The notes under the pieces: model-generated
The model's input: only the letters and a program-made list of their open reading frames with translations
The model's database searches: none
What the model was told of the DNA's origin: nothing
Assembly: GCA_964517155.1 (NCBI GenBank)
Contig: CAZFAZ010000037.1
Coordinates: 1 to 42,070, forward strand
Direction: 5' to 3'
DNA: 42,070 nt
Source of the DNA: an uncultured Thermoplasmatales archaeon
GTDB taxonomy: Archaea > Thermoplasmatota > E2 > DHVEG-1
Program-made: the position numbers and the translations under genes
Shown here: positions 4,021 through 32,334 of the stretch, one piece after another
Layout: the number at the start of each line of letters is the position of its first letter
How positions within the stretch are numbered: position 1 is the first letter of the stretch

Positions 4021-4272
4021 CCCAATCCTTACATAAACAACGAATCAGTCTTTTAAATCATTTTTTCGCATTTGAATGTGTAAACGAATATGTATGTAGA
4101 TATGTCTAATACCATCCAAAAAATACATCTTTTTAAAAAAAATGAAATAAATACAATAGAATAAACAACTATAAACAATACAACGTTTTTTATCATATTT
4201 ACCATAGTGCTTAATAATAAGTTATGCATATCGGTTTTTGACCTATTACACTAATAAAAGGGGGCTTAAAAA

Positions 4273-10856: not shown

Positions 10857-13800
10857 TTATTTCTTTTTACCAAACAGAAGAATTGCCATAACTAGTATTA
10901 CTACCAAAACCAATATTACAACTATAAATAGTGGCATTCCAAAAAACAACGCTGGTTTTTCACGAGCATATGGATAACTTGTTGCACCAAAAGGCATATG
11001 ACCATTTATAGAAAGTTCTGCATCATATTTTATAGGACGAGTTTCGTCTTTTTCCCAATAATTATTATCACTGTATTCTGTACTTGGGACATACATTCTT
11101 AAATTTGGATCTCCAAAGTATACAACATTTTGAGCATCATCCCACCACCATTGCGGACCATCTTTACCACCACCTAAATATAAATTACCGACTGTACTCA
11201 TCCCGCGAGTATAGGCCTCACCAACTGTATAACCAAGTATTATATCACGGGGAATAGATTGCCTCCAAATAGCACCATACCATGATGTCGGCCAAGGATC
11301 TTGCACCTGGAATACTGAACCATGTCTAATCATCATCAAATGTAAATAAGTATTACTTGTTTGACATATACTTGTTACAAAACCCACTGAATAGATATTT
11401 TCAAGGCCTTCTTCAATTTGTAATGCATTTTTATCTACAAGTGGATATCTAGAAAAAGAAACAGTTCCAATAAGACCATCATATAGATTATCTGTATCAA
11501 ATGGATCAATAAAAGGTATAACTTGGTTTAATTTTTCCCGGATTGGTTTTCTTGCGAGAACCCAATCCATACCTGTAGCAGGAATTATCAAAGAATTATG
11601 ATTTGTAAAAGGCATCATTCCTTTAATATCCATAGTCATGGTATCAGGTTCTTGTGTACTTCCCAAATACCAGTCATATCCACGCCAAGGATTTACCTCA
11701 TACTTTGCACCAGCAAGTATTCCTGCGAGTTTATGATTCTCTCCAAAACCAGTATCAACATCCCAAAACAGCGTTCTTCCACCTTCCTGCTGTGTACCAT
11801 GAGATGCATGTATCCATAATAAAACTCCTTGATTTAAATTATTTTGCACTGCCTGTAAATTTGTTGAAAAAGCTGTATCAAAACCTCCTTTATTCAGGTA
11901 AAATGGCACTATTTCAGTTTCAGTCATATCTGGAAAATACATCCCTGCATCTCCAGTATACTTTTCATTCACACCTTGGTCAATATGCTGCATACTTGCA
12001 GTCTCACCTGGAACTCTTCCATCCGCACATTCATATTTTGTTTCATAATATGCACTTGCACGCTCGTTGAAACGATGTTTATGAGTCACAAATGAACATA
12101 AAACAGGAAAATCATATTTTTCTTCTCCGCCCTCTTTCACAACTAAAGTATTTAAATACGGTTTTTGAAACAAACCAAGAAGTCCTCCTCTTTCACTTTT
12201 ACTACCATTAATTAAGTTTACTGAACCTTTTAATGCAGGATTTTCAAAAATAAGCGCTGGATAAAACATACTCCTTGAAATAGACACCGCTGTATCAACA
12301 GGTGTTCCACAGAACCTGCCTGAATTTGCAACACCTACAAATACTCTATCCCATGAAACGCCTATATCATACTGATCTGCAACAGTAACTATGGTTTCAT
12401 CACCTGGTTTGTCAAAACCATACTTACCAAGAAAATCATAAACTCTAGCCCCTGTAAGAGACATCTCTGCAACAGATGGTTTATAGTTATATCGCTCAGC
12501 AGAATATCTCCTCCAAAATTCATTATGCCATACTGCTGCTGATGAAAGTTCAGGGTGATTGTCAATAATTAAAACAGGTGTTCCATGATGAGCAGCAATA
12601 TATGCAGCAGGACCTAAAAATAATCCTGCGTCTGTTTCATCACCTGGTTTAAGCTCTGCAACATACCATTTTGTCCAAGGATCAATTGTTGTAAAAACAA
12701 TACTATTACTACCTGTATCATTTAGTATATCTGTATATATATCCTCAAGTTTTAGATAGTTTTTTTCAATTTTTGCTATCTTTGTTAGTTCGTCAAATAT
12801 TTCTTTGTTTAAATTTTTATTTATATCAACAATATAAATATTTTTAACACCAAGTGTATACAAAGCATTACTTGTACATTCAGATAAACTATCAGCTTTA
12901 GTATAAAGCAATGGTGCATTTAGGTTACTTGCAAGAACCGCGCCATTACTTGCCGAAGCCAAAGAATCTGCTTTTTTTTCAGGTATTTCTTGTTTAAAAC
13001 TATATTCTAATGTAAAATCCACAGGTATTGTAACATCATTTAAAGAAAAAACAGATACTTTATAGCTTTCATCAGGTAAACATTCACCCAAGAAATCTAT
13101 TGTCATTTCCTGATTTTTTGTTTTACTTTCATTAATTTCTGTGTATATTGCCTCACCGCCAGGTCCAATAAGTGTAAAACCTAATACAACATCGGGATTG
13201 TTCCATGAAAGTTTAAATTCTGCATCTCTGCATCCAAAAGGAGGAGCATCAGGTAACTCAAAAGTAATCCCTGGAAACAATGTTATATCAACATGATAAT
13301 TAACAACTGGTTTAAAAAAATTGAAAAGAGATCCTTGCAACTGAAAAAGATTGGGAATACCACTACGCGGTGCATCAGACTCTGTTGGAAAATCAGTAAT
13401 TGTAACACGCCAATCTCCTGGACTATAAACATATGATTTTGTAATTTCATGACCTGCAGGATAATAAATATTCCAAGCAGCGGTCGCAACAGTCTGCATC
13501 CATTTATCATCTTTTTTGCAATATAATTGAATATCTGGGTCACCTGTAGGAAGCATAGTTCCTGCAACTAACATTCCATCCCACCATGCTTCTGCTTCTA
13601 TGAAACAGTACTTTTCATCAACTTCAAAAAATGCACTTACCGGATTTAATCTATTTGTCTGTTCAACATTAAACGTTTCAAGCTTTTTTATTTTATTTGC
13701 AGGCAACTGTTTTTTAATTTCATTATGTTTTTCTTGCAGATCTAAATTATCAAATGTTTCTTGAGAAACTGCAATTACAGCATTATCACTATAACTCCAA

Positions 13801-14324
13801 TCACTAAGAGCTATTTTACTTGCAATTTCATAAATATCTTCACCCGTAATCTCGACTATTTCATCTGCACGCCATTCAGGAGTTATTTTTTCTGCTCCAA
13901 GATTTATAAGAGTCATTTGATCTAATTTACCATTACAATAACTCATATAATCTTGCATAAAATAGTAGATACCAGTATATGCATCAAGAGAACGATACTT
14001 ATCATCGTTATATTCTAACTTATCTTGATAAAATAATAAAGGATGCGAAAAAAGTTTATTCTGTTCATTAAAAATAGCAGTTGGAATACTTGCTAGATAT
14101 GCATAATCATCAATATAACTATCTTCATCAAAATTTACAAAAGTCACCTTTTTCATAGGAACAACACTTGTATAAGAAGGACCTTTATCAAAACCCTGAT
14201 ATACACCTGTATCTAAACCCTGAATCAACGGTGCAAAACTACCTGCTAAAAAAAGAATTACTATCATTAATAATATAACTTTTTTTGATTTATCTTTAAA
14301 TTTTAACACAAGCTTTTCCCCCAA
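10857..14324 (-). CDS. Large secreted, C-terminally anchored protein with CWB2-like repeats and gingipain/C25-like peptidase domain (paralog 1)
   Basis: Signal peptide; ADSLASA..LNAPLLYT; HASHG...SICQ...GEAY...YFGDP; C-terminal TM plus KKK. Confidence 0.7.
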   Translation of the reverse strand: MGEKLVLKFKDKSKKVILLMIVILFLAGSFAPLIQGLDTGVYQGFDKGPSYTSVVPMKKVTFVNFDEDSYIDDYAYLASIPTAIFNEQNKLFSHPLLFYQDKLEYNDDKYRSLDAYTGIYYFMQDYMSYCNGKLDQMTLINLGAEKITPEWRADEIVEITGEDIYEIASKIALSDWSYSDNAVIAVSQETFDNLDLQEKHNEIKKQLPANKIKKLETFNVEQTNRLNPVSAFFEVDEKYCFIEAEAWWDGMLVAGTMLPTGDPDIQLYCKKDDKWMQTVATAAWNIYYPAGHEITKSYVYSPGDWRVTITDFPTESDAPRSGIPNLFQLQGSLFNFFKPVVNYHVDITLFPGITFELPDAPPFGCRDAEFKLSWNNPDVVLGFTLIGPGGEAIYTEINESKTKNQEMTIDFLGECLPDESYKVSVFSLNDVTIPVDFTLEYSFKQEIPEKKADSLASASNGAVLASNLNAPLLYTKADSLSECTSNALYTLGVKNIYIVDINKNLNKEIFDELTKIAKIEKNYLKLEDIYTDILNDTGSNSIVFTTIDPWTKWYVAELKPGDETDAGLFLGPAAYIAAHHGTPVLIIDNHPELSSAAVWHNEFWRRYSAERYNYKPSVAEMSLTGARVYDFLGKYGFDKPGDETIVTVADQYDIGVSWDRVFVGVANSGRFCGTPVDTAVSISRSMFYPALIFENPALKGSVNLINGSKSERGGLLGLFQKPYLNTLVVKEGGEEKYDFPVLCSFVTHKHRFNERASAYYETKYECADGRVPGETASMQHIDQGVNEKYTGDAGMYFPDMTETEIVPFYLNKGGFDTAFSTNLQAVQNNLNQGVLLWIHASHGTQQEGGRTLFWDVDTGFGENHKLAGILAGAKYEVNPWRGYDWYLGSTQEPDTMTMDIKGMMPFTNHNSLIIPATGMDWVLARKPIREKLNQVIPFIDPFDTDNLYDGLIGTVSFSRYPLVDKNALQIEEGLENIYSVGFVTSICQTSNTYLHLMMIRHGSVFQVQDPWPTSWYGAIWRQSIPRDIILGYTVGEAYTRGMSTVGNLYLGGGKDGPQWWWDDAQNVVYFGDPNLRMYVPSTEYSDNNYWEKDETRPIKYDAELSINGHMPFGATSYPYAREKPALFFGMPLFIVVILVLVVILVMAILLFGKKK
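10936..11063. repeat. Direct repeat copy 1 (126/128 identical to 14500-14627)
   Basis: Direct alignment of the two tracts shows two mismatches. Confidence 0.93.
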
Positions 14325-14417
14325 ACATTATATTTATATTGCCTATTGTATATTATTATTGGTTATTTATATATTGACTTTTTATTCTTTTATCTAAAAA
14401 AAATAAAAAGAATTTTT

Positions 14418-17400
14418 TTATTTTTTCTTACGACCAATGAATGCTATAACTATTACAAGCAGTATTATAACTAATAATAATACGAAGATAACTAGCGGTA
14501 TTCCAAAAAACAACGCTGGTTTTTCACGAGCATATGGATAACTTGTTGCACCAAAAGGCATATGGCCATTTATAGAAAGTTCTGCATCATATTTTATAGG
14601 ATGAGTTTCGTCTTTTTCCCAATAATTTTGAGCTTCATAATCGTATTCTGTACTTGGTGTCCAAACACGAAGATCAGGATCGCCATAGAATACAACGTTT
14701 TCATTTAAGTCCCACCACCATTGGTCGACTAGATACTGTATTCCTACTTCAGCCATTCCTTCTTCATATGCTTGACCTATTGTTTTACCGAGTGCTAATG
14801 CTCGGGGTATATTATGTAACCATATACCACTATACCAAGAAGTTGACCATGGGTCTAAGATTTGATATGGTGTACCGTGTCTTATGAGAGTCGTATGTAG
14901 ATAAGTATGCGCAACAAGACATGATACTGCATTAAGACCACAGCTGTGTAAGTTTCCTAAATCATCATCAAAATTTATACCATTTCTACCAGTTAAAACG
15001 TTTTCACCGCCTGGTAATGGATCTATTACTACACCATCGTCACCATATGCTCTGAATTGCCTACCAATAATGGGTATTAAACTTAGCCCTTTTGACTCCT
15101 TAATATGATAATCAACGCGAAATGCATCACAGAATATAGACACAGGTACTTGAGGGTTCATAACTGCAACATCCGGATCCTCTGTGCTGCCCCAATCAAC
15201 TGCTAAAAGATTAATAGGTGTTGTTAAAATGCTTCCTAATTTGAATAACAAACTAAAAGAAGGCATCCCCATCTCATGCAATAATTCTGGAGTATACTGT
15301 GTAAACTCTTTAAGAGTACCCGCAGATACAAGAGGTCTCTCATAAGCACGCCACGGGTTTTCTTCATAGACATAAGGACTTTCTGTATTCCAAAAGCCAA
15401 GGTTTCCATAATTACCATTTCCGCCATGGCAGCTTTCCATCCACATTATTACACCTTTGTTTAGATTTTCTACCGCTACGTCATAGTTTGTCGAAAAACA
15501 ATTACTGTAACCTGCTTTTTGACCATAAAAAGGTACAGCATATGTCTCATGTATATCTGGATAAAACGCTCCTACTTTATCTGTCGCTCCATTATCAATA
15601 GAATAAGGAGATGCTGTTTCATAAGGTATGACGCCATTTGCAGTTGTATACATACCTCCCCAGTGATTGCTTGCTACCTTGTTAAAATCAATTAAGTAAA
15701 CATTGTATGTATGCAATATTGGATAAGTATATTGTTCTTCTTGAGATTCGCGAATTATTCTTAAATCTGTACCTAAAGGTTTCATAAGTTTTCCAAGTAT
15801 TGGAACAACGGTACTTTTACTACCATTGACTAATGTAACTTCACCTTGAAGTGCTGGATTTTCAAATATTAGTGCTGGATAAAAGAAGTTTCTTGATGAC
15901 CAATAAGCAATATCCACTGGAGAACTACAAAAACGACCAGGTATAACTCTTCCTGTAAACGTTCTATCCCATGTAGCACCAATGTCAAATTGATCTGCAA
16001 CAGTAATCATTGTTGCAAGTTCTTCTTTATTTTTAGGTAGATCAAAGCCCATAGATTCTAAGAAGCTTATTACATTTCTACCCGTAAGAACCATACAAGC
16101 AACAGATGGAAGGTTAGGCCTATATTGATCATTTGCAGTTTTTCTCCAAAATTCTGTATGCCAAACAACAGCCTGTGAAAGTTCTGGATGATTATCAACG
16201 ATAACAACAGGCGAACCATGATGAGCAGCAATGTACGCTGCGGGACCTATAAATAATGCACCAGGATATTCATCTACTGGAACTGCATCTAACGAATAAT
16301 AATAGGTCCAAGGATCAACGGTTGAAATTATAATATCGTTACTGCCTGTGCGATCTCTTATTTCATCATAAATTTCTTTGTATTGATTGAAAGTTGTAAC
16401 TTCGCCAACTTGTTCTAATTCATCACATACTTCACCTGATGCATAGTTGCCTAAATCTACAAAGTAAATATTTTCGATGCCTAATTTGTATAGTACATCG
16501 CTAGTAACTTCTGGCACAGCATCTTTAGTTATGTAAAGTAAAGGTACATTTAATGTGCTTGCAAGAACTGATCCTTCCGTTGCACTAGCAAGCATATCGC
16601 CTCGCTCACGTGTATAATTTTGCTTCCAACTATAGCTAACTTCAAAGCTAAGATCACTTTTTATATCATCAAGAGAAAAGACACATATCTTATATTTATC
16701 AGTTTTAGAAGTCTCTCCTAATTTTTCAAGTTCTATATCAAGTTCAGTAGCCCCTCTCTCAATACCGGTTACTATTTCATCATTAGATGGAACAGAAGCT
16801 GTCTCTGCACCGGTAGGGTCTAGAACTAAAAAGCCTAGAGCAACATTTGGATTATTCCATTCAAGAGTAAATTCAATATCTCTGCAACCATATGGAACAG
16901 CATCATCTATTTCAACTTCTACACCAGGATATAAGTAAATTTCTACATCTTGTTTGTTACTTCCACCTAATGCTGTTTTTGAGAATAAACCTGTTGGTTC
17001 TTCAACTGTTTTAAAGTTTGATTCCATTAGTCCTTTATCAGCAGAACGCTGTGTTGGCATATATGTTACACCAACTTCCCATTTACCATAGTTGTATACA
17101 TATGAACTAGCTGTTTCACCTGCACCATAGAAAATGTTCCATTTTGAATCAGCATCAGCCATACCTAGCTGGTTATCATAAAGTTGTAGATCAAGATCTA
17201 TCGCCACATTATCCCAAAGCATGTTTGCTATAACATATTTGTAAGGCGAGTTTATTTCAAAGTCTTCATAGTTTCCACCTACACCTATAGTAGGGGTTTC
17301 CATCTGAAAAGTGAAATCTTTTGTATCATATCCTGCAGGTATAACACCCTTGATTACACCTTCATGTTCAATGTTTGGCGATTCAAATTCTTCATCAATT

Positions 17401-17942
17401 ACTGCGATTACTGCATCTTTTGAATAACTCCAATCATTAAGAGCAATATTACCAGCAACCTCATAAATATCATCACCAGAAATCTCAACAACCTCATCAG
17501 CACTCCACTCAGAATTTACCTCATCAACATCAAGATTCACAAGAGTCATCTGATCAAGCTTACCATTACAATAACTCATATAATCCTCCATAAAATAATT
17601 AATACCTGGGTAAGTGTCAAGTATTCTATATTTATCATCATCATAGTCTAGTTTATCTTGATAAAACAATAATGGATGCGAAAAAAGTCTACCTTGATCT
17701 TTAAAAACAGCAGTTGGAACACTTGCAAGATACGCATAATCATCAATTAATGTTTCTTCATCAAAATTTACAAAAGTTACCTTCTTCATAGGAACAACCG
17801 AAGTATACGATGGTCCTTTATCAAAACCGTCAATTCTATCAATATCTTTTGCATTTACCAAAGGTACTAGCATGCCTAAAGTTAATGCAGCTACTACTAA
17901 TACTGCAAAAAAACTTTTTTTAAAATTTTTTTTATTTATCAT
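14418..17942 (-). CDS. Large secreted, C-terminally anchored protein with CWB2-like repeats and gingipain/C25-like peptidase domain (paralog 2)
   Basis: Signal peptide; GDMLASA..LNVPLLYI; ESCHG...VSCL...GQAY...FYGDP; C-terminal TM plus RKKK; colinear with paralog 1. Confidence 0.7.
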   Translation of the reverse strand: MINKKNFKKSFFAVLVVAALTLGMLVPLVNAKDIDRIDGFDKGPSYTSVVPMKKVTFVNFDEETLIDDYAYLASVPTAVFKDQGRLFSHPLLFYQDKLDYDDDKYRILDTYPGINYFMEDYMSYCNGKLDQMTLVNLDVDEVNSEWSADEVVEISGDDIYEVAGNIALNDWSYSKDAVIAVIDEEFESPNIEHEGVIKGVIPAGYDTKDFTFQMETPTIGVGGNYEDFEINSPYKYVIANMLWDNVAIDLDLQLYDNQLGMADADSKWNIFYGAGETASSYVYNYGKWEVGVTYMPTQRSADKGLMESNFKTVEEPTGLFSKTALGGSNKQDVEIYLYPGVEVEIDDAVPYGCRDIEFTLEWNNPNVALGFLVLDPTGAETASVPSNDEIVTGIERGATELDIELEKLGETSKTDKYKICVFSLDDIKSDLSFEVSYSWKQNYTRERGDMLASATEGSVLASTLNVPLLYITKDAVPEVTSDVLYKLGIENIYFVDLGNYASGEVCDELEQVGEVTTFNQYKEIYDEIRDRTGSNDIIISTVDPWTYYYSLDAVPVDEYPGALFIGPAAYIAAHHGSPVVIVDNHPELSQAVVWHTEFWRKTANDQYRPNLPSVACMVLTGRNVISFLESMGFDLPKNKEELATMITVADQFDIGATWDRTFTGRVIPGRFCSSPVDIAYWSSRNFFYPALIFENPALQGEVTLVNGSKSTVVPILGKLMKPLGTDLRIIRESQEEQYTYPILHTYNVYLIDFNKVASNHWGGMYTTANGVIPYETASPYSIDNGATDKVGAFYPDIHETYAVPFYGQKAGYSNCFSTNYDVAVENLNKGVIMWMESCHGGNGNYGNLGFWNTESPYVYEENPWRAYERPLVSAGTLKEFTQYTPELLHEMGMPSFSLLFKLGSILTTPINLLAVDWGSTEDPDVAVMNPQVPVSIFCDAFRVDYHIKESKGLSLIPIIGRQFRAYGDDGVVIDPLPGGENVLTGRNGINFDDDLGNLHSCGLNAVSCLVAHTYLHTTLIRHGTPYQILDPWSTSWYSGIWLHNIPRALALGKTIGQAYEEGMAEVGIQYLVDQWWWDLNENVVFYGDPDLRVWTPSTEYDYEAQNYWEKDETHPIKYDAELSINGHMPFGATSYPYAREKPALFFGIPLVIFVLLLVIILLVIVIAFIGRKKK
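14500..14627. repeat. Direct repeat copy 2
   Basis: Near-identical to 10936-11063. Confidence 0.93.
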
Positions 17943-24638: not shown

Positions 24639-25670
24639 ATGTCTAAACTAACACTTGATATGAATACATTCAAAGCACTTGCATCTGATACAAGGCTTGA
24701 TATTTTACGCGCTCTTGATGGTAAAAAATTAAGTTTAAACGATATCTGCAAAGCAACAAACCTTAACAAGGCAACTCTTCATGAGCATCTGATAAAACTT
24801 AATGAGGCAGGTCTTGTTAAAAAGAATGAGCGAGAAGGACATAAATGGGTATACTATAAACTTACATGGAAGGGTGAAGGGCTTCTTCATCCAGAAAATA
24901 CTAGAATTGTTGTAATGTTCAGTAGTACATTTATTTCTTTATTAATTGCAGTTATACTTATAGTAAATTTTTTACAGCCCATTCCTATAGGAATTGCTGA
25001 GACGATAAATGATACAACATATCTTTATGAAGTAGAATCTGCAGGTATTCCTATACTAGGTGAAAAAAGTTATAATTTCAGATATCTTGCAGAGGTTGAT
25101 GCAAGAGAAAAAACTGTGGAAAATATAACAGTGACGCTTCAGCAAAATGCTCTTCCTACGAACAGCATAGGATATACTTACGATCAGGCCGATATAGTTT
25201 GGTTTAATATAGAATCTGCAAATATACAAAATTTTGATGATGCCTGCGGTGATAAGTATATCTTATCTGCAGAGCAATCTAATCAAAAGTTAAAGATCGA
25301 AACAGATTGTGCACATATCCCCAATCAACAAAATATGGTATATGTAATATTTGAAGAGAAATATATGTTTAATAATGACACAAATATCTCAGCTAAAAAA
25401 ACATTAAAAGGAAATAGTACAGAAGGCAACGAAACAAATGTCTCCCCTAATGATGAATTTGTAAGAGATGAAAACGAAACAAATGAAACTACTTTGGGAT
25501 TTGAATATGGCGAAGGATCTTTACATTTTTACCCCGCAGTTCCAACAATGATAGCAACTGTACAAGATACAACATTACTATATTTAGCAGTTGCGTGTCT
25601 AACATTTTTTACAACATTATTTACTATATCACTTTGGAGATTTAAAGTAAATAAAAAACCTAAACTCTAA
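24639..25670 (+). CDS. Membrane-tethered ArsR-family regulator (wHTH-TM-extracellular domain-TM)
   Basis: FKALASDTRLDIL...LHEHLIKLNEAGLV...YYKLT; two TM helices flank a loop rich in N-x-S/T sequons. Confidence 0.85.
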   Translation: MSKLTLDMNTFKALASDTRLDILRALDGKKLSLNDICKATNLNKATLHEHLIKLNEAGLVKKNEREGHKWVYYKLTWKGEGLLHPENTRIVVMFSSTFISLLIAVILIVNFLQPIPIGIAETINDTTYLYEVESAGIPILGEKSYNFRYLAEVDAREKTVENITVTLQQNALPTNSIGYTYDQADIVWFNIESANIQNFDDACGDKYILSAEQSNQKLKIETDCAHIPNQQNMVYVIFEEKYMFNNDTNISAKKTLKGNSTEGNETNVSPNDEFVRDENETNETTLGFEYGEGSLHFYPAVPTMIATVQDTTLLYLAVACLTFFTTLFTISLWRFKVNKKPKL

Positions 25671-25711
25671 CAAACCCACCATAAACGTATAAATAAAAAA
25701 ATAGATTTTAG

Positions 25712-25783
25712 TTAATGTAAACTATCTCTTAATTCATTAATTTCCTCATTTTCTTCAAAGAAATCAAATAACGTCTTTTGCAT
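25712..25783 (-). CDS. Putative 23-aa PIP-box microprotein MQKTLFDFFEENEEINELRDSLH
   Basis: ATG-TAA ORF; GAGGTGA SD 6 nt upstream (25790-25796); BRE/TATA-like CGAAAGAAATATAAC at 25821-25835; T-tract downstream. Confidence 0.6.
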   Translation of the reverse strand: MQKTLFDFFEENEEINELRDSLH

Positions 25784-25855
25784 CCAGCATCACCTCAAAA
25801 AATATGTATGAAAAAACATAGTTATATTTCTTTCGATGAAGACAGACTAAAACAT

Positions 25856-26965
25856 CTATTTAATCGTTTTAAGATCTACTGCATTATATGTGCATACTTC
25901 ATGACAGCAGTAACATTTTATACACTTTGAATAATCTATTTTGGCTCTTTTATCAATTATCTTTATTGCTTCTCTAGGACATATTGCTTTACACTCACCA
26001 CAGCCTACACACTTTTCAGTTATACAAGGAAAACGATTTGGTGTTTCTTCACCTGTAAGAAGATAACCTGCCGTAGAAGGAAGCAAAAAATTCTTATATT
26101 CAGCATCTTTTGGAGAAAGCAAGGGATAATTAATTTTTGTTGGCCACATGTTTCTTATTTTTGCTTCTTTTAACGTTGGTATACCTACAGGCTCTATACC
26201 AAGTATCTTGCAGACAGCAAGATCTAAGGCTACAGCATTATCTGATGCAAGCATAACTCCCAACTCAACAGGTATGCCGCCCATAGGCCCATCACCTTGC
26301 ATACCAACTATTCCATCCATAATTATTAAATCAGGTTTTGCAACAGAAAACACGTCAAGTAACATTTCAGAAAAAGCTTTTTGCCTAATAAAAATAGAAT
26401 GATATTTAACCTTGTTTAGACCAGGAACAACACCAAACATTATTTTTGTTGCAAGAGTCATCATCATAAGTGAATGTGTTTTTATTTTAGGCATAGCTAT
26501 TGTTTTATCTGCCTTTAGAAAAAAATTACATAAAGGTATCTTTTGTAATCTTTTACCGCCAGGAGAATCAATTTTTTTATAGCTAGTATCATAATTTAAT
26601 TCAATTCCTAACTCTTTTGAAAGTTTTATTAAACCTGATTTTTCATATACTTTTTTTAATCTTCTTTTTGTAAATGGACCTGACGGCGAATCTCCAATAT
26701 ATGGTATTCCTCCTATGTTTAAAACAGATTTAGCAACAGCACTAATCAGAACAGGATGTGTTACCACAGCTTTTTCAGGTTCAGTTGCATTCAAAAGATT
26801 TGTTTTTAATAAAACTCTTTCACCTTTATTTATATAGTTTTTAAAACCTCCAATTGGTTTTAAAAGAGATTCAACATCTAAATTTTCATATGTTGATTTT
26901 TGGATACTTACCGATGCTGTATTACAGACTTGATTATACTTCACAGAATGGCAAATGTTATTCAT
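25856..26965 (-). CDS. DUF362 protein with C-terminal 2x[4Fe-4S] ferredoxin domain
   Basis: VLLKTNLL, VTHP and PKIKTH motifs; CVGCGECKAICP and CIKCYCCHEVC. Confidence 0.9.
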   Translation of the reverse strand: MNNICHSVKYNQVCNTASVSIQKSTYENLDVESLLKPIGGFKNYINKGERVLLKTNLLNATEPEKAVVTHPVLISAVAKSVLNIGGIPYIGDSPSGPFTKRRLKKVYEKSGLIKLSKELGIELNYDTSYKKIDSPGGKRLQKIPLCNFFLKADKTIAMPKIKTHSLMMMTLATKIMFGVVPGLNKVKYHSIFIRQKAFSEMLLDVFSVAKPDLIIMDGIVGMQGDGPMGGIPVELGVMLASDNAVALDLAVCKILGIEPVGIPTLKEAKIRNMWPTKINYPLLSPKDAEYKNFLLPSTAGYLLTGEETPNRFPCITEKCVGCGECKAICPREAIKIIDKRAKIDYSKCIKCYCCHEVCTYNAVDLKTIK

Positions 26966-27135: not shown

Positions 27136-27807
27136 TCAATTATTTTGTTGTTTTCTTTTTTTAAAAAATAGCAGTAAAATCAAAAAAATAATAACAAATA
27201 TTAGCTGAAAACCTAAATAATCAACTGATGATTCATAACTATCTTCAACTGGATATATAGTAACCACCTCACTTGATTTGTAATCACTCCATGTCTCATT
27301 TATTATGTTTACACTTACAACTGTGAAATAAAATGATTCTGTATTTTTCCCAAAAAACTCAAAATCAATATTCAAAGGAACATTACCCTCAATAAAATCA
27401 CTATCCGGTTTAACACGCATCTTCCAAACCATAATATGCTCATCATATTTTTCAGGGTTCCAAAAAGTTATATCTCCTATTGCCCTTGGATCAAAATCAT
27501 ATAATTGTGCATTACTAGGCAGATTACTAGGTTTTTCAAGTAACTCAAAATCATATGGTGGACCATAACAAGACATATGATAACTTATAGATTTTAAATC
27601 TGTTTTTGTTTTAACCCATATCTTTACATAAAATGGTTGACCAAGTTTAAGACTTGTATACGCAGTTGCATTTTCCCAATTTAAAGAATCTTTGCTAAAC
27701 CATACATCACAGATACCTAAACTGTTTTCAGCAGGTTTGTTTGCAAAAATTATCTCTGAAAAAAGAAGTAAAAAAATTGTTGTAATTAAAAAAATACTTT
27801 TTTTCAA
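27136..27807 (-). CDS. Cell-surface protein, sarcinarray/MAST-domain-like, with C-terminal TM sorting signal
   Basis: Signal peptide; WF..NATA..LKLGQPF.VKI motif; C-terminal LGF-TM-KKRK; TTG start overlaps the upstream stop. Confidence 0.6.
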   Translation of the reverse strand: MKKSIFLITTIFLLLFSEIIFANKPAENSLGICDVWFSKDSLNWENATAYTSLKLGQPFYVKIWVKTKTDLKSISYHMSCYGPPYDFELLEKPSNLPSNAQLYDFDPRAIGDITFWNPEKYDEHIMVWKMRVKPDSDFIEGNVPLNIDFEFFGKNTESFYFTVVSVNIINETWSDYKSSEVVTIYPVEDSYESSVDYLGFQLIFVIIFLILLLFFKKRKQQNN

Positions 27808-30548
27808 CTCCAGCCATCCTCCTCAGAATAATCCCCCCAATCTCCAACCATAAAACCCCAAGAAGGCACAACTGAAAAAGAAACTGTCGTAAAACCAAAT
27901 TTCAAGCGGGTGTTTCTACCTACTTTAATAGTATTTTCAAGGTTGTATACATCTTGCTCTTTTCGTACATATATCTGCGGGTCATGACCAAAAATAGGGT
28001 TAAAAATTGTTTCATCGCTACTGTCGACAACCTTGAATTCAGCGTATTCACCTTTAACATCTATAATCCATATATTAAGTGTTATAATCCATGGTGTAAC
28101 AGGGGTAGGTGGTAGAATTGGCAGACCTGTTGGACCTAAAGTACAGATGTTTCTAAGACCCATTGTTTGAATTGTTTTACCTTCAAACTCTGTTTTTTTA
28201 AAAGGCGTTAAATAATCAGGAGATTGGTCAACTGCAAGTTTTACTGTTTCGCCCCATTCAAGTTCATCGTTTTTATATCTTGATAAATCCATATCAAAAC
28301 CAAATGGAATAAAAAATTGATTTTGTAAAAAATTCATACCTTCACTTGATAATGTATCTTTTATATCTGATGCACTAAAGCCTTGATCTGTAACATGTTG
28401 TGTAATAAGATTATCAATTTGATTGTTTATTGCATTTTCAACTTGTAAAAAAACATTTTCGATGTCTTGTCGTACTTTATATACATACCAGTCGCGTACA
28501 TAGTATACTGCTTTGTTACCTGTGCTTTTAAACAAATCAGAATCAGCATATCTTTGTTTATCTAAGAAGTCATCAAGCTTATTGTCATATTTTTGAAGTA
28601 AATCAGTTTTTATAAGCTGTAAAAGCTCAAAGGTATTTGGATAATTTGTTGAATTAAGAGCAGGGTCTTGTTTGATTTCTGAAATCTGAGTATATATCTC
28701 TTCTAAAGAAAGCCACGCATTATCTTGAACCCAGCTTGGAACTGTACCACTTATTTTTTCGTTGTAATATGAACCTGAAATTTTCTGTAAAAGCTCAACA
28801 TAATTTGGAAAATAAAAAGAATAAAGATATGTGTTTAGAGTATCCTCAAGGTTTATATCATTATAAACTGTGTTTTTGTATAAAACATCAATTATGTCGC
28901 TTTCAGAGCTTTTATATTGTGAATAAGCACTAAGTATTACACGGAGGGTTACATCATCTTCTGTTTTTATGTCAATTGCAGTATATTCATACCAGGTATC
29001 ATTAATTTTTTTACTCCAAGTATGCTCTCTTTCAAAGACAAGATCATACACCTCACCATATAACGTACAACCTGGGGTGATAAAGCCTTTATCTGGCTTG
29101 TCAAAAGTCTGAGTAAGAGCCATAGAAACAAGACTCCAATCAGATGTACCATTGTCGATAGGATACCCTGTGTGATCCCCTATGCTAATAACTGGAGCTG
29201 AAAGATGCGCAACAGTTGTTTTAATACTAGCAGTATAAACATCTTGTAAAATTTCAGTTATTTTATCTACCGTAGTCTGATTTGTCTTTGTTTTTGCTTG
29301 GAGTAATTGTTCAAATTTATACCCTTGAGATTTATAATCATTTATAATCTGAGTGACATCTTCTTCTGTAAAAGGTGTAAAAATCTCTATTTTTATAGTA
29401 TCATCAGGTTTGCTTAAAACAACATATGCACTTTCCCAGTCATATAACGGCCTTTGTGCAATCTCAGAAAGATTAATCTCAGGACAATCATTTGTATCCT
29501 CTGGAACACTTGCAGGATCGGTAATATCTACCTCATTTGAAAAATCAGATGTAACTATCTGCAGGCCAGAAGGATCTGATAAATCAGTGTTTATTAAATC
29601 TGTTAAATCAGAGTCTTTGTTTTTCAATGTTTTATATGTATTATTTACAAGTTGGATAAGAGCCATCGGATCTGCACTTCCAAATGTAAAACTTTGTTCA
29701 AATAAAAGACCTGCATTTACAATAAGTGCGAGATGCTTATTATCAACAACATTTTCAGGATCCCCATTTTGGTAGTGTTGATAACCTCTTATAAGAGTAT
29801 ATAGGTTTGCGATAATTGTTGTAAAAGTCCACAGTTCATTTATACCATTAATTGTTTTATTATAATCTTTGTCAACAAGATTTCTAAGAAGCAAAAAACG
29901 TGAGGTCAAAATACATGAAACATCAATTTTTCTCTTTGTTAAAAATTGGCTAGGTTTACCAGTTTCAAGTTTTTTTATTTCAACTTCAACAGGTATAAAT
30001 GCCATATAATAACTTGGATGAGACACTTCACCAAGAGGTGTAATAAAAGGTATGCTCATCGGTCTTTTAAGTTTCATTTCAAGTTCTTCAAAAGAAATCA
30101 TATCACACGAATAAACAGGATAGCTCTGTCCTTCAGGAATTAAAATATTTACTGCATATTTACCGTCGTTAAACATTTCATAAAGATAATTACCAGTCAG
30201 ATAAACATTCATTTCATCCATTATTATTTCACGAACAAGGTTTTTGTTTACATCTTTGACAGTATCACCATAAACAGTTGAACCCGCTTCAAAAACAGGC
30301 ATTTCACCTATTTTTTTTAAACCTTTAAGACCAGCTATGTTTAAAGCAGTAGTCATATCTGCTTCTGCAAGGCGAAGAAGGTTTTCTACTTCATTAAAAT
30401 CAACGGTATCTGAAAGTTCAATGGTTTTCTCAGTTTCAAGTTTTGCAATATAAACAGTTGTCATACTACTTCCAAGAATTAAAAAAACACCTATAACTGA
30501 AAAAGGAACACGAGCATAATTATTTCTAATAATATCTTTAATTTTCAT
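27804..30548 (-). CDS. Large (914 aa) class III signal-peptide protein, candidate pilus adhesin or minor pilin
   Basis: RNNYA|RVPFSVIGVFLILG N-terminus; coupled to the upstream gene by an ATGA overlap. Confidence 0.65.
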   Translation of the reverse strand: MKIKDIIRNNYARVPFSVIGVFLILGSSMTTVYIAKLETEKTIELSDTVDFNEVENLLRLAEADMTTALNIAGLKGLKKIGEMPVFEAGSTVYGDTVKDVNKNLVREIIMDEMNVYLTGNYLYEMFNDGKYAVNILIPEGQSYPVYSCDMISFEELEMKLKRPMSIPFITPLGEVSHPSYYMAFIPVEVEIKKLETGKPSQFLTKRKIDVSCILTSRFLLLRNLVDKDYNKTINGINELWTFTTIIANLYTLIRGYQHYQNGDPENVVDNKHLALIVNAGLLFEQSFTFGSADPMALIQLVNNTYKTLKNKDSDLTDLINTDLSDPSGLQIVTSDFSNEVDITDPASVPEDTNDCPEINLSEIAQRPLYDWESAYVVLSKPDDTIKIEIFTPFTEEDVTQIINDYKSQGYKFEQLLQAKTKTNQTTVDKITEILQDVYTASIKTTVAHLSAPVISIGDHTGYPIDNGTSDWSLVSMALTQTFDKPDKGFITPGCTLYGEVYDLVFEREHTWSKKINDTWYEYTAIDIKTEDDVTLRVILSAYSQYKSSESDIIDVLYKNTVYNDINLEDTLNTYLYSFYFPNYVELLQKISGSYYNEKISGTVPSWVQDNAWLSLEEIYTQISEIKQDPALNSTNYPNTFELLQLIKTDLLQKYDNKLDDFLDKQRYADSDLFKSTGNKAVYYVRDWYVYKVRQDIENVFLQVENAINNQIDNLITQHVTDQGFSASDIKDTLSSEGMNFLQNQFFIPFGFDMDLSRYKNDELEWGETVKLAVDQSPDYLTPFKKTEFEGKTIQTMGLRNICTLGPTGLPILPPTPVTPWIITLNIWIIDVKGEYAEFKVVDSSDETIFNPIFGHDPQIYVRKEQDVYNLENTIKVGRNTRLKFGFTTVSFSVVPSWGFMVGDWGDYSEEDGWS

Positions 30549-31846
30549 CCTCTAACCTCCCAGATCATAAGTCTTACTTGGGCTTTATTTAACGAAATCT
30601 GATCAAAAAGCCAAGTAGAAATAAAATCATACAAATCTACAATATCAAAATCTGATAAAACAAAATCAATAAAATTTTGGATATAAACTGGAAAAACATT
30701 TGCAACTAACTTTGTTACTTCCTCTTTTATCATTTCTTCTAAAAAATTTAAACCTTCATCAAGTGATGCAAAAGAACTTCCAATAAAATCAGATATCTGC
30801 TCATTTATTTGTTCTGCAATACCATTAAAAATAGGATTACCGCCACCTCCAATGTCTGCAAAAAAGCTGTCAACTGAACCAAGAGCCTCACCCATAAAAC
30901 TGTTTATTAAATCATCAGTAAAAACATTTATCACAGAGTTTATACTACTAAAACCATAATCTATCGCTAGATCAACAATGCCTGGAAATAATAAAGTATT
31001 GTTTGAATCTTTAATGCCTCCTACTAAAAATCCTTGTACAAGTTTAGTTAAATTTTCATTTGCAGCTATGGTAGCATTGGTTTTATTATCAAAAGGTGGC
31101 ACACCTGCAGTATAACTGTTGACAATTGTAGTGATGTTTCCAACATTAGGAGTTTTTTTAAGTATTTCTTCTTCAACCCAGTATCTGGTAAAAGTATAAT
31201 TTTTCCCATTGAAACTAAAAGTTGGTTTGAAAGGCATCATAATAAAACTTTTTGAAACATAACAATTTGTATCTGGCGGGGTATCACCAATTTGAATTTC
31301 TCCACCAAATGTTACACCTTTTATAGGATGCCAAATTGCTGTAAAATTAAATTTGTATTTATCTGAGAGATAATCGTTGAAAAAATCCTGTGTTTCTTTT
31401 TTAAGTTGCCTGTCAAAATCTCCTGTAAATATATTAAATCGATTTGTTCCAAAAACTGAAATCGGCAGTCTTATTTGACATGCAAGGTTTTCTGCGATAA
31501 GGTTTGCATGTGTTTTATGAAGTTGCTCTCTTGCCAGAATCCAGTCAGTAATTGATTTATATAAACCATCTGAAGAATTATCAATACCTATACTTCCTGC
31601 AACGTCATCTATTAAATCACCTGCTAGTTTATAACTAAATTTATCCATTCTGGAGACAAGGTAAGTGTTTAATGCATTATCTGCAACATGCTCGCGATGT
31701 TTATCAATCGAGCCTTTTACAGCTATATCACTTTGAAGAGCGGGCAGAAGTACTACTGCTGAAAGGGATACTAAAACTAGAAAGAAAACTGCATCGTACA
31801 TCACCGCAAGAGCCTTTGTATTTTTTAAAAAAAATCTTTGTTTCAA
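30545..31846 (-). CDS. Class III signal-peptide pilin-like protein (433 aa)
   Basis: KNTKA|LAVMYDAVFFLVLVSLSAVVL N-terminus; TTGA overlap. Confidence 0.65.
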   Translation of the reverse strand: MKQRFFLKNTKALAVMYDAVFFLVLVSLSAVVLLPALQSDIAVKGSIDKHREHVADNALNTYLVSRMDKFSYKLAGDLIDDVAGSIGIDNSSDGLYKSITDWILAREQLHKTHANLIAENLACQIRLPISVFGTNRFNIFTGDFDRQLKKETQDFFNDYLSDKYKFNFTAIWHPIKGVTFGGEIQIGDTPPDTNCYVSKSFIMMPFKPTFSFNGKNYTFTRYWVEEEILKKTPNVGNITTIVNSYTAGVPPFDNKTNATIAANENLTKLVQGFLVGGIKDSNNTLLFPGIVDLAIDYGFSSINSVINVFTDDLINSFMGEALGSVDSFFADIGGGGNPIFNGIAEQINEQISDFIGSSFASLDEGLNFLEEMIKEEVTKLVANVFPVYIQNFIDFVLSDFDIVDLYDFISTWLFDQISLNKAQVRLMIWEVRG

Positions 31847-32334
31847 GAGCTCGTGCTCCAGAGTATTACGGTTAGTTTACCAGGTTTGGTTTGAGCCTCA
31901 TTTAAGTAAACACCTATTTCTTTGGAGATTGCTATTCGATTATAAACGCCATTTGGTAAATCGTCTGGAAAATCACTATAAGTATCAGCCCATTCTATTC
32001 TAACTACAAAATCTAGACCTGATTTTTTGTATTCTTCTTTTAAGTCAGCTAATAAATCCTTGCTTTCTTTAGTGTTTAAAAGAGGTATGCTTATAATTCC
32101 ACCTTCTTTTACAAAAGAGCAATCAGGGTTGGTAATTTTTGTTACAATAAAATCAGCGGTCGTATATTTTTCGATAGCATTTATTCTTATTTCATATGCG
32201 TTGTATGTATTGGTAATCAGAAGTAAAAAAAGCGTAAATCCTATCATCACGAGGGAAATGGCAGGTAGTGTTGTAAACTCCTCAGAAACTGCTTTTTCAT
32301 TTTTTATAAATTTTCTGAGAGTTTTGTTTTTCAT
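31843..32334 (-). CDS. Class III signal-peptide pilin-like protein (163 aa)
   Basis: KNEKA|VSEEFTTLPAISLVMIGFTLFLLLI N-terminus. Confidence 0.7.
   Translation of the reverse strand: MKNKTLRKFIKNEKAVSEEFTTLPAISLVMIGFTLFLLLITNTYNAYEIRINAIEKYTTADFIVTKITNPDCSFVKEGGIISIPLLNTKESKDLLADLKEEYKKSGLDFVVRIEWADTYSDFPDDLPNGVYNRIAISKEIGVYLNEAQTKPGKLTVILWSTSS

Follow-up and report, generated by a model that had tools for sequence, protein, structure and literature searches.

A micro-ORF of 23 codons, located in the stretch of 42,070 nucleotides that was analysed here (referred to as the window; it is AT-rich, with a G+C of 29–34%), is evidently a real, independent, protein-coding gene under protein-level purifying selection, as judged from the way its relatives differ from each other. 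The peptide starts with a PIP box, the motif by which client proteins dock on the sliding clamp PCNA. PCNA, with its three identical pockets and many competing clients, coordinates replication and repair. The best explanation overall, to which we give a probability of about 0.6, is that this is an independently transcribed and translated micro-protein gene, with its own promoter and Shine-Dalgarno sequence (SD), whose PIP peptide competes for the PCNA pocket. The micro-gene is unannotated and illustrates well how standard gene callers can miss a gene that is conserved and functional. Searches of open-access literature found no description of such a micro-peptide, and an exact-sequence look-up in a collection of about 15 billion proteins found 1 of 9 distinct member peptides, unnamed.

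The micro-ORF lies within a gap of 185 nt between a plus-strand and a minus-strand gene, and the features of the locus are as follows.

25712..25783, minus strand: micro-ORF of 23 codons plus stop, encoding MQKTLFDFFEENEEINELRDSLH (23 aa), with the start ATG at 25783–25781 and the stop TAA at 25714–25712; it is made up of M-QKTLFDFF, in which the PIP box covers residues 2–9, followed by the tail EENEEINELRDSLH
25790..25796, minus strand: Shine-Dalgarno sequence GAGGTGA, separated by 6 nt (25789–25784) from the ATG of the micro-ORF
25822..25835, minus strand: BRE/TATA-like promoter element, with the BRE-like cgaaa at 25835–25831 and the TATA-like aaatataa at 25829–25822, the latter centred about 42 nt upstream of the ATG; assigned from the sequence and from the motif in relatives
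25695..25701, minus strand: run of seven Ts, a likely archaeal terminator signal of the micro-gene, 11 nt past its stop
24639..25670, plus strand: convergent neighbour encoding a 343-aa ArsR-type winged-helix protein (Pfam HTH_5, 1.9e-11)
25856..26965, minus strand: upstream gene on the same strand, DUF362 with 4Fe-4S, given for context only

Re-reading and translating the sequence returned the ORF, the exact peptide and the SD at 6 nt just as the preliminary description had given them, and its promoter-like element at about 40 nt and T-tract after the stop were found where it had placed them. The stop of the ArsR-type gene and that of the micro-ORF are 41 nt apart, and the ArsR-type protein has a hydrophobic (membrane) segment after its HTH. 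On the other side, the DUF362 gene stops 72 nt ahead of the ATG, and the promoter of the micro-gene falls inside that gap. A scan for sigma-70 promoters and hairpins, by a scanner not designed for archaeal signals, found nothing relevant at the micro-gene. Six-frame translation of this 1.585 Mb genome yields 25 instances of a strict PIP pattern, and only in the micro-ORF does it come straight after a start codon. The ORF and its signals recur together in 83–84 distinct sequence versions from relatives, more than chance would give.

We compared the region by blastn with 41 related genomes, in which the ORF start and its upstream signals were kept well beyond the genus and the translated matches gave the same type of peptide. 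A profile was then built from 14 members of the micro-protein and searched at several taxonomic levels. It matched 81 of the 108 genomes of its own family at E≤1e-3 (92 at E≤1) and 35 of the 40 genera at E≤0.01, nearly every match being a single copy in an open frame of 19–65 aa. The conservation of motif, SD, frame and synteny that had been proposed as a check in related genomes was observed across the family. Outside it, the profile matched none of the 89 genomes in the rest of the class and, at E≤1e-4, none of the 347 genomes (49 other families) in the rest of the phylum, while the rest of the order (10 genomes) gave one weak match to the tail of another protein. Within the family, 16 of the 108 genomes had no match even at E≤1; these are MAGs of 63–93% completeness, and one of them, G016, carries a divergent copy that was found via synteny. 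Synteny also brought in divergent members with a weak profile score or none, starting with MQTTLLDF in G016, MQMTLFDF in G006 and MQKTLSDF in G009.

The exact word MQKTLFDF, searched in one genome per prokaryote species, occurred in 48 stretches, of which 21 were confirmed. The confirmed ones come from MAGs labelled Thermoplasmatota, Thermoplasmata or Thermoplasmatales, plus one labelled Methanobacteriota; the SG8-52 MAGs among the carriers we take to be Marine Benthic Group D (DHVEG-1, 'Thermoprofundales'). With 57 further loci added, the collection reached 118 instances, which represent 84 distinct DNA versions and 81 distinct peptides, and since the carriers are kin these counts overstate the number of independent observations. 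As for paralogues, the first blastn search gave 2–3 partial matches in some genomes, and the second match in G004 was spurious. Two near-identical copies on two contigs of G007 are probably assembly or strain duplicates, and G058 has two similar copies; otherwise there is one copy per genome.

The peptide QKTLFDFF fits the PIP-box pattern Q-x-x-[L/I/M]-x-x-[F/Y]-[F/Y, or aliphatic in archaea]. Among the 84 versions, Q2 is kept in 84, L5 in 83 and an F or Y at residue 8 in 84, and residue 9, the eighth position of the motif, is aromatic in only 32. The N-terminal PIP box, M-Q-K-T-L-[F/L]-D-F-[F/I/L], is the sole universally conserved part of the micro-protein. The weak match in the rest of the order (E 0.023) corresponds to the C-terminus, ...NQQKSLLDF, of a 411-aa protein that is presumably EndoQ-like; Pfam has no family for its orthologue in the genome studied here. 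This match prompted a survey of C-termini in this genome, with the tails listed below, each written up to its last residue.

EndoQ-like protein (name assumed by us): ...DKQTSLFDYK
RFC large subunit: ...NNQQSLFDF
NucS: ...NQKTLKEFKG
Nre: ...YQKRLEDF
PolB: ...KQTGLDSWM
FEN1: ...MMKQKTLF, shortened; stop codon at 4185–4187 of contig C54, minus strand
PolD DP2: ...KTTKLDDFF, PIP-like without the Gln
RNase HII: ...KKLSDF, PIP-like without the Gln

The tails of FEN1, RFC-L, NucS, Nre, the EndoQ-like protein and PolB follow Q-x-x-L-x-[D/E/S]-[F/Y/W] or a shortened form of it. The motif Q-x-x-L-x-x-F-F, which had been called the canonical PCNA-interacting motif on first reading, deserves that name here and is of the same type as the tails of the genome's own FEN1, RFC-L, NucS and EndoQ-like proteins. 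Because the client tails share the motif, the first eight residues of the micro-protein correspond to the docking peptide of the lineage's own FEN1 and RFC-L, placed at the N-terminus of a free peptide. In FEN1 C-termini from 29 relatives, KQKTLF is the ending in 13 of 20 family genomes and KQKNLFDF in the other 7, as well as in families f3 and f4. The short FEN1 tail ends right after the fifth residue of the motif; family f2 has Q..RLF and family f6 QTTLF at this place. According to a review, archaeal PCNA clients, both core and non-core, dock through C-terminal PIP motifs (PMC4929162). A single PCNA gene, a frame of 251 aa on contig C51, is present in the genome studied here, and its two Pfam domains both score above their cut-offs.

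From this likeness, the free PIP peptide most likely occupies the PIP pocket of the organism's PCNA. It would insert its N-terminal PIP box into the pocket under the interdomain connector loop of the single PCNA, with the Gln in the Q-pocket and Leu5 and Phe8 in the hydrophobic pocket. The tails with which FEN1, the RFC large subunit, NucS, Nre, the EndoQ-like protein and PolB end, each with its PIP motif, would be its competitors at this site. The peptide would therefore be a small clamp ligand that can be titrated, in the manner of TIP from the Thermococcales. We infer binding to PCNA and competition in this way, and likewise the direction of the effect, be it inhibition or tuning.

The residues that follow the PIP box vary. 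On average, residues 10–16 are acidic (net −3.3), whereas the C-terminal end has a slight positive charge (+1.2). The majority type of tail is acidic and partly amphipathic, and a hydrophobic pair at positions 15 and 18, seen in 25 of 80 peptides, is spaced as if on one face of a helix. In 15 of the 80 distinct peptides, all from one subclade, the tail is instead basic (...GEKNKR...AAK). The acidic tail that the preliminary description attached to the peptide therefore holds for most members and fails for these 15, and any mechanism that needs an acidic tail fails for the same part of the family. As no tail type is universal, the tail cannot be the conserved working part.

The tail bears on one other way of using the same pocket, in which the peptide binds PCNA as a positive factor or an adaptor rather than as a brake: it could cap pockets for the hand-off of clients, stabilise PCNA, or recruit a second factor through its tail. 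The evidence from the PIP motif is the same for such a role as for competition. The gene is moreover family-wide, single-copy and in a housekeeping context (behind an S9/RpoN cluster in one subclade), its strong consensus promoter and SD suit constitutive rather than emergency use, and the hydrophobic pair at 15 and 18 could form a helix face. The deletion of TIP is likewise reported to have no phenotype (PMC4929162). However, 17–25 aa leave little room for a second interface, and the tail that would have to provide it is not conserved across the family, and we consider a role of this kind unlikely.

The surroundings of the micro-gene leave room for a different partner, since the only conserved neighbour is the membrane-anchored ArsR-type regulator and not a replication gene. 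Of 79 loci, 75 have a downstream neighbour encoded on the opposite strand, at a gap of 10–196 nt (median 42 nt), and in 73 of the 79 this neighbour has an ArsR-type HTH. The six exceptions have a phosphoribosyltransferase next to the micro-gene (three loci), an arylsulfotransferase (one) or ORFs truncated at contig ends (two). The upstream neighbours, tested for 53 of 73 loci with near-duplicates left out, were RNA_pol_N (5), Ribosomal_S9 (5), MscS-type (4), TFIIB (2), DUF362 (2), radical SAM/B12 (2) and nine families found once each, and 24 had no family. Because the upstream neighbour differs between genera, the upstream gene is not part of the unit. Replication or repair genes were absent from the 19 ORFs tested around the micro-gene in the window, which include purD, a phosphoribosyltransferase, TYW1, a subtilase, folD and a DUF7286 cluster.

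Some further features of these surroundings were recorded. In one subclade (10 loci), the micro-gene is located 350–720 nt downstream of the cluster of ribosomal protein S9 and RNA polymerase subunit N, on the same strand. The first ~113 residues of the ArsR-type protein are 68–75% identical across genera of the family and the remainder diverges; its length ranges from ~185 to 343 aa, the C-terminal part is variable, and orthologues are present in sister families too. Within the window, the minus strand of 27139–32334 holds four ORFs in the same direction (223, 914, 433 and 163 aa) whose stops and starts overlap or abut, where the sole Pfam match is DUF7286 in the C-terminal 100 residues of the 914-aa protein; the 223-aa ORF looks secreted or anchored and the run resembles a surface-structure cluster. 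Two adjacent ORFs of 1155 and 1174 aa on the minus strand of 10860–17942 have no Pfam family at E≤1e-8. Elsewhere in the assembly, contigs C57 and C58 have near-identical 332-aa ORFs (1394–2392 in each) with tails that differ by few residues, probably a strain-level duplication in the assembly.

The micro-protein could be real with a partner other than PCNA, bound through the same short hydrophobic-acidic motif, for instance the convergent, membrane-anchored ArsR-type regulator, or the two genes could regulate each other via overlapping transcripts. The tight convergent pairing described above, the variable upstream neighbour and the lack of a replication or repair gene among the 19 ORFs would all suit such an arrangement. 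Against it, the motif is of exactly the PIP type of this genome's PCNA clients, and in genus g7 (L017 and L104) the micro-ORF is intact while the ArsR gene is not adjacent and a phosphoribosyltransferase takes its place. The sister family f2 has the ArsR-type orthologue in 7 of 8 genomes, yet no PIP micro-ORF was present behind it in the six f2 loci inspected, and so the regulator does not need the peptide. Mutual regulation meets the further difficulty that convergent genes are not co-transcribed. We consider a partner other than PCNA, or a regulatory coupling with the ArsR-type gene, to be the main rival but improbable, slightly more so than a positive role at the clamp. The ArsR-type gene is the conserved synteny partner, with a putative functional link. 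The micro-gene itself is an innovation of one family, in which it was placed behind a regulator gene that already existed and has stayed there.

That the conserved element is a translated gene, as the reading of a competing PIP peptide supposes, is indicated by its codons. Across the 84 distinct DNA versions, Q2, K3, T4 and D7 are invariant while the third codon positions vary freely, as seen in the codon counts below.

Q2: CAA 53, CAG 31
K3: AAA 77, AAG 7
T4: ACA 60, ACC 16, ACT 5, ACG 3
L5: TTA 57, TTG 14, CTA 9, CTC 3, and one Ile
D7: GAT 81, GAC 3
F8: TTT 48, TTC 34, and two Tyr

Residue 6 is F in 56 versions, L in 26 and Y in 2, and residue 9 is I in 34, F in 32, L in 11, V in 4 and M in 3. 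The identity per nucleotide shows a period of three. All versions are 17–25 codons long, with the stop at codons 18–26; they start with ATG (76), GTG (7) or TTG (1) and stop with TAA (63), TAG (14) or TGA (7). A change pattern that is only synonymous fits a translated gene and not an RNA or DNA element.

The signals around the frame are also kept. An SD-like GGTGA or GTGAT is found within 16 nt upstream in 81 of 83 distinct sequences; for 75 of the 83, the first base of GTGA is at −9 or −10. The promoter motif cgaaa(a/g)nAtataa is visible in relatives, and 72 of the 83 have a TATA-like element that begins 38–44 nt ahead of the start codon, which would place the transcription start about 15 nt before the ATG. 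The T run past the stop is only moderately conserved (T5 or more within 30 nt in 36 of 83; T4 or more in 51). An in-frame ATG two codons upstream, inside the SD as GGTGATG, exists in 52 of 83 members, where the protein could begin M-x-M-QKT; 22 of the 83, this genome included, have no in-frame upstream ATG. Seven of the eight members that start with GTG or TTG have an upstream ATG, six of them inside the SD and one further upstream. Since an upstream ATG is present in some members and absent in others, the true N-terminus may differ between them.

These data bear on the proposal that the conserved element is non-coding, a cis-regulatory or RNA element with a fortuitous ORF. Such an element could be a small RNA, or it could belong to the ArsR-type gene as a 3′ UTR, a terminator or an antisense region. 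It would agree with this that the element follows immediately on the ArsR-type gene, between convergent genes, and that the DNA identity of its first 27 nt is high. On the other hand, variation has a period of three and is synonymous-only at residues 2, 3, 4 and 7 in 84 DNA versions, a start codon is always present, stops fall at codons 18–26 with all three stop codons in use, and the SD and TATA are at fixed distances. RNAalifold on 40 members gave 0 consensus pairs, and no Rfam family was over threshold, the only match, plasmodium_snoR21, scoring 28.9 bits where the gathering threshold is 90. A search of 12 loci with ARAGORN for tRNAs or fixed upstream features found one tRNA-Pro, at one locus only. 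The non-coding reading is already contradicted by the codon pattern and looks refuted; we give it a very small chance.

The faintest chance of all goes to a decayed or split-off tail of a longer gene, such as a pseudogenised PCNA client or a detached end of the DUF362 gene. PIP boxes are normally on long proteins, and the shortened FEN1 ending QKTLF, found in 13 of 20 family genomes, hints that such tails have been on the move in evolution. This reading nevertheless looks refuted by the data. In 83 distinct versions the PIP box is N-terminal, straight behind a start codon, and the frame has a promoter and an SD of its own; the gene upstream is not the same from genus to genus and in this genome ends with its own stop 72 nt earlier; and all PCNA clients sought in this genome are uninterrupted open frames, five intact ones having a Q-type PIP tail (that of FEN1 shortened) and PolD DP2 and RNase HII a PIP-like ...LxDF without Gln.

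Competition of the PIP peptide for the PCNA pocket thus remains our preferred reading, and it can be extended to a fuller picture that we propose tentatively, at somewhat less than an even chance. The micro-protein would be a well-expressed 'naked' PIP peptide kept throughout a family of uncultured benthic Thermoplasmatota, the smallest natural cellular clamp ligand known, that titrates PCNA pockets in competition with FEN1, RFC and repair nucleases. It would have a single origin at the root of the family, perhaps in a client tail captured from FEN1 or RFC-L, and would be what TIP and viral PIP micro-proteins are elsewhere, in a cellular setting. Through transcriptional interference, its fixed convergent pairing with the membrane-anchored ArsR-type gene would tie the availability of the clamp to a signal from the envelope or the environment. 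PIP-based ligands as such are already known; what would be new here is such a clamp ligand in minimal, cellular and family-wide form. If true, a second archaeal lineage would have arrived on its own at regulating the clamp with a free motif, and in the most minimal form of it. The subject bears on how archaeal cells set the occupancy of PCNA pockets, and the micro-protein is a directly testable reagent, as a synthetic peptide with recombinant PCNA.

To our knowledge, TIP is the only described archaeal small PCNA inhibitor, and it is confined to the Thermococcales. Like TIP of Thermococcus kodakarensis, the micro-protein is small, archaeal and confined to one lineage, and its PIP box is N-terminal, from residue 2 (or from residue 4 where the ATG in the SD is used, which does not apply to this genome). 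Unlike the micro-protein, TIP has a partial PH-like C-terminal half and a non-canonical PIP and breaks the PCNA trimer, whereas the micro-protein, at 17–25 aa, has the canonical Q-x-x-L-x-x-F and no room for a domain; the micro-protein belongs to a family of Thermoplasmatota and TIP to a different phylum-level lineage. A profile search of PDB chains gave 22 weak matches with no TIP chain among them; MQKALFDFLK in calcium-channel beta subunits (best E 0.32) was put down to chance. By these comparisons the micro-protein does not appear to be a member of the TIP family, and TIP is its closest known analogue, non-homologous to it. TIP has 64 aa with a PIP proposed at residues 2–8, inhibits PCNA-PolB and PCNA-Fen1 in vitro and has no deletion phenotype (PMC4929162), and the choice of TIP as a precedent in the preliminary description was a fair analogy; in a second report, TIP is described as disrupting the PCNA trimer (PMC6204406).

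Viral contigs scanned with the family motif gave 22 pattern matches, none of which was confirmed. In eukaryotes, the C-terminal peptide of p21 (CDKN1A) and PAF15/p15 are PIP regulators that compete with polymerases and FEN1. They resemble the micro-protein in being short or disordered proteins that occupy the PCNA pocket, and differ from it in being much longer, eukaryote-specific and non-homologous, with basic flanks. The tails of FEN1, the RFC large subunit, NucS, NreA, EndoQ and PolB have the same motif as the micro-protein, down to the choice of residues; in the clients, however, the PIP box forms the last residues of large enzymes, whereas in the micro-protein it forms the first residues of a free peptide with no catalytic cargo.
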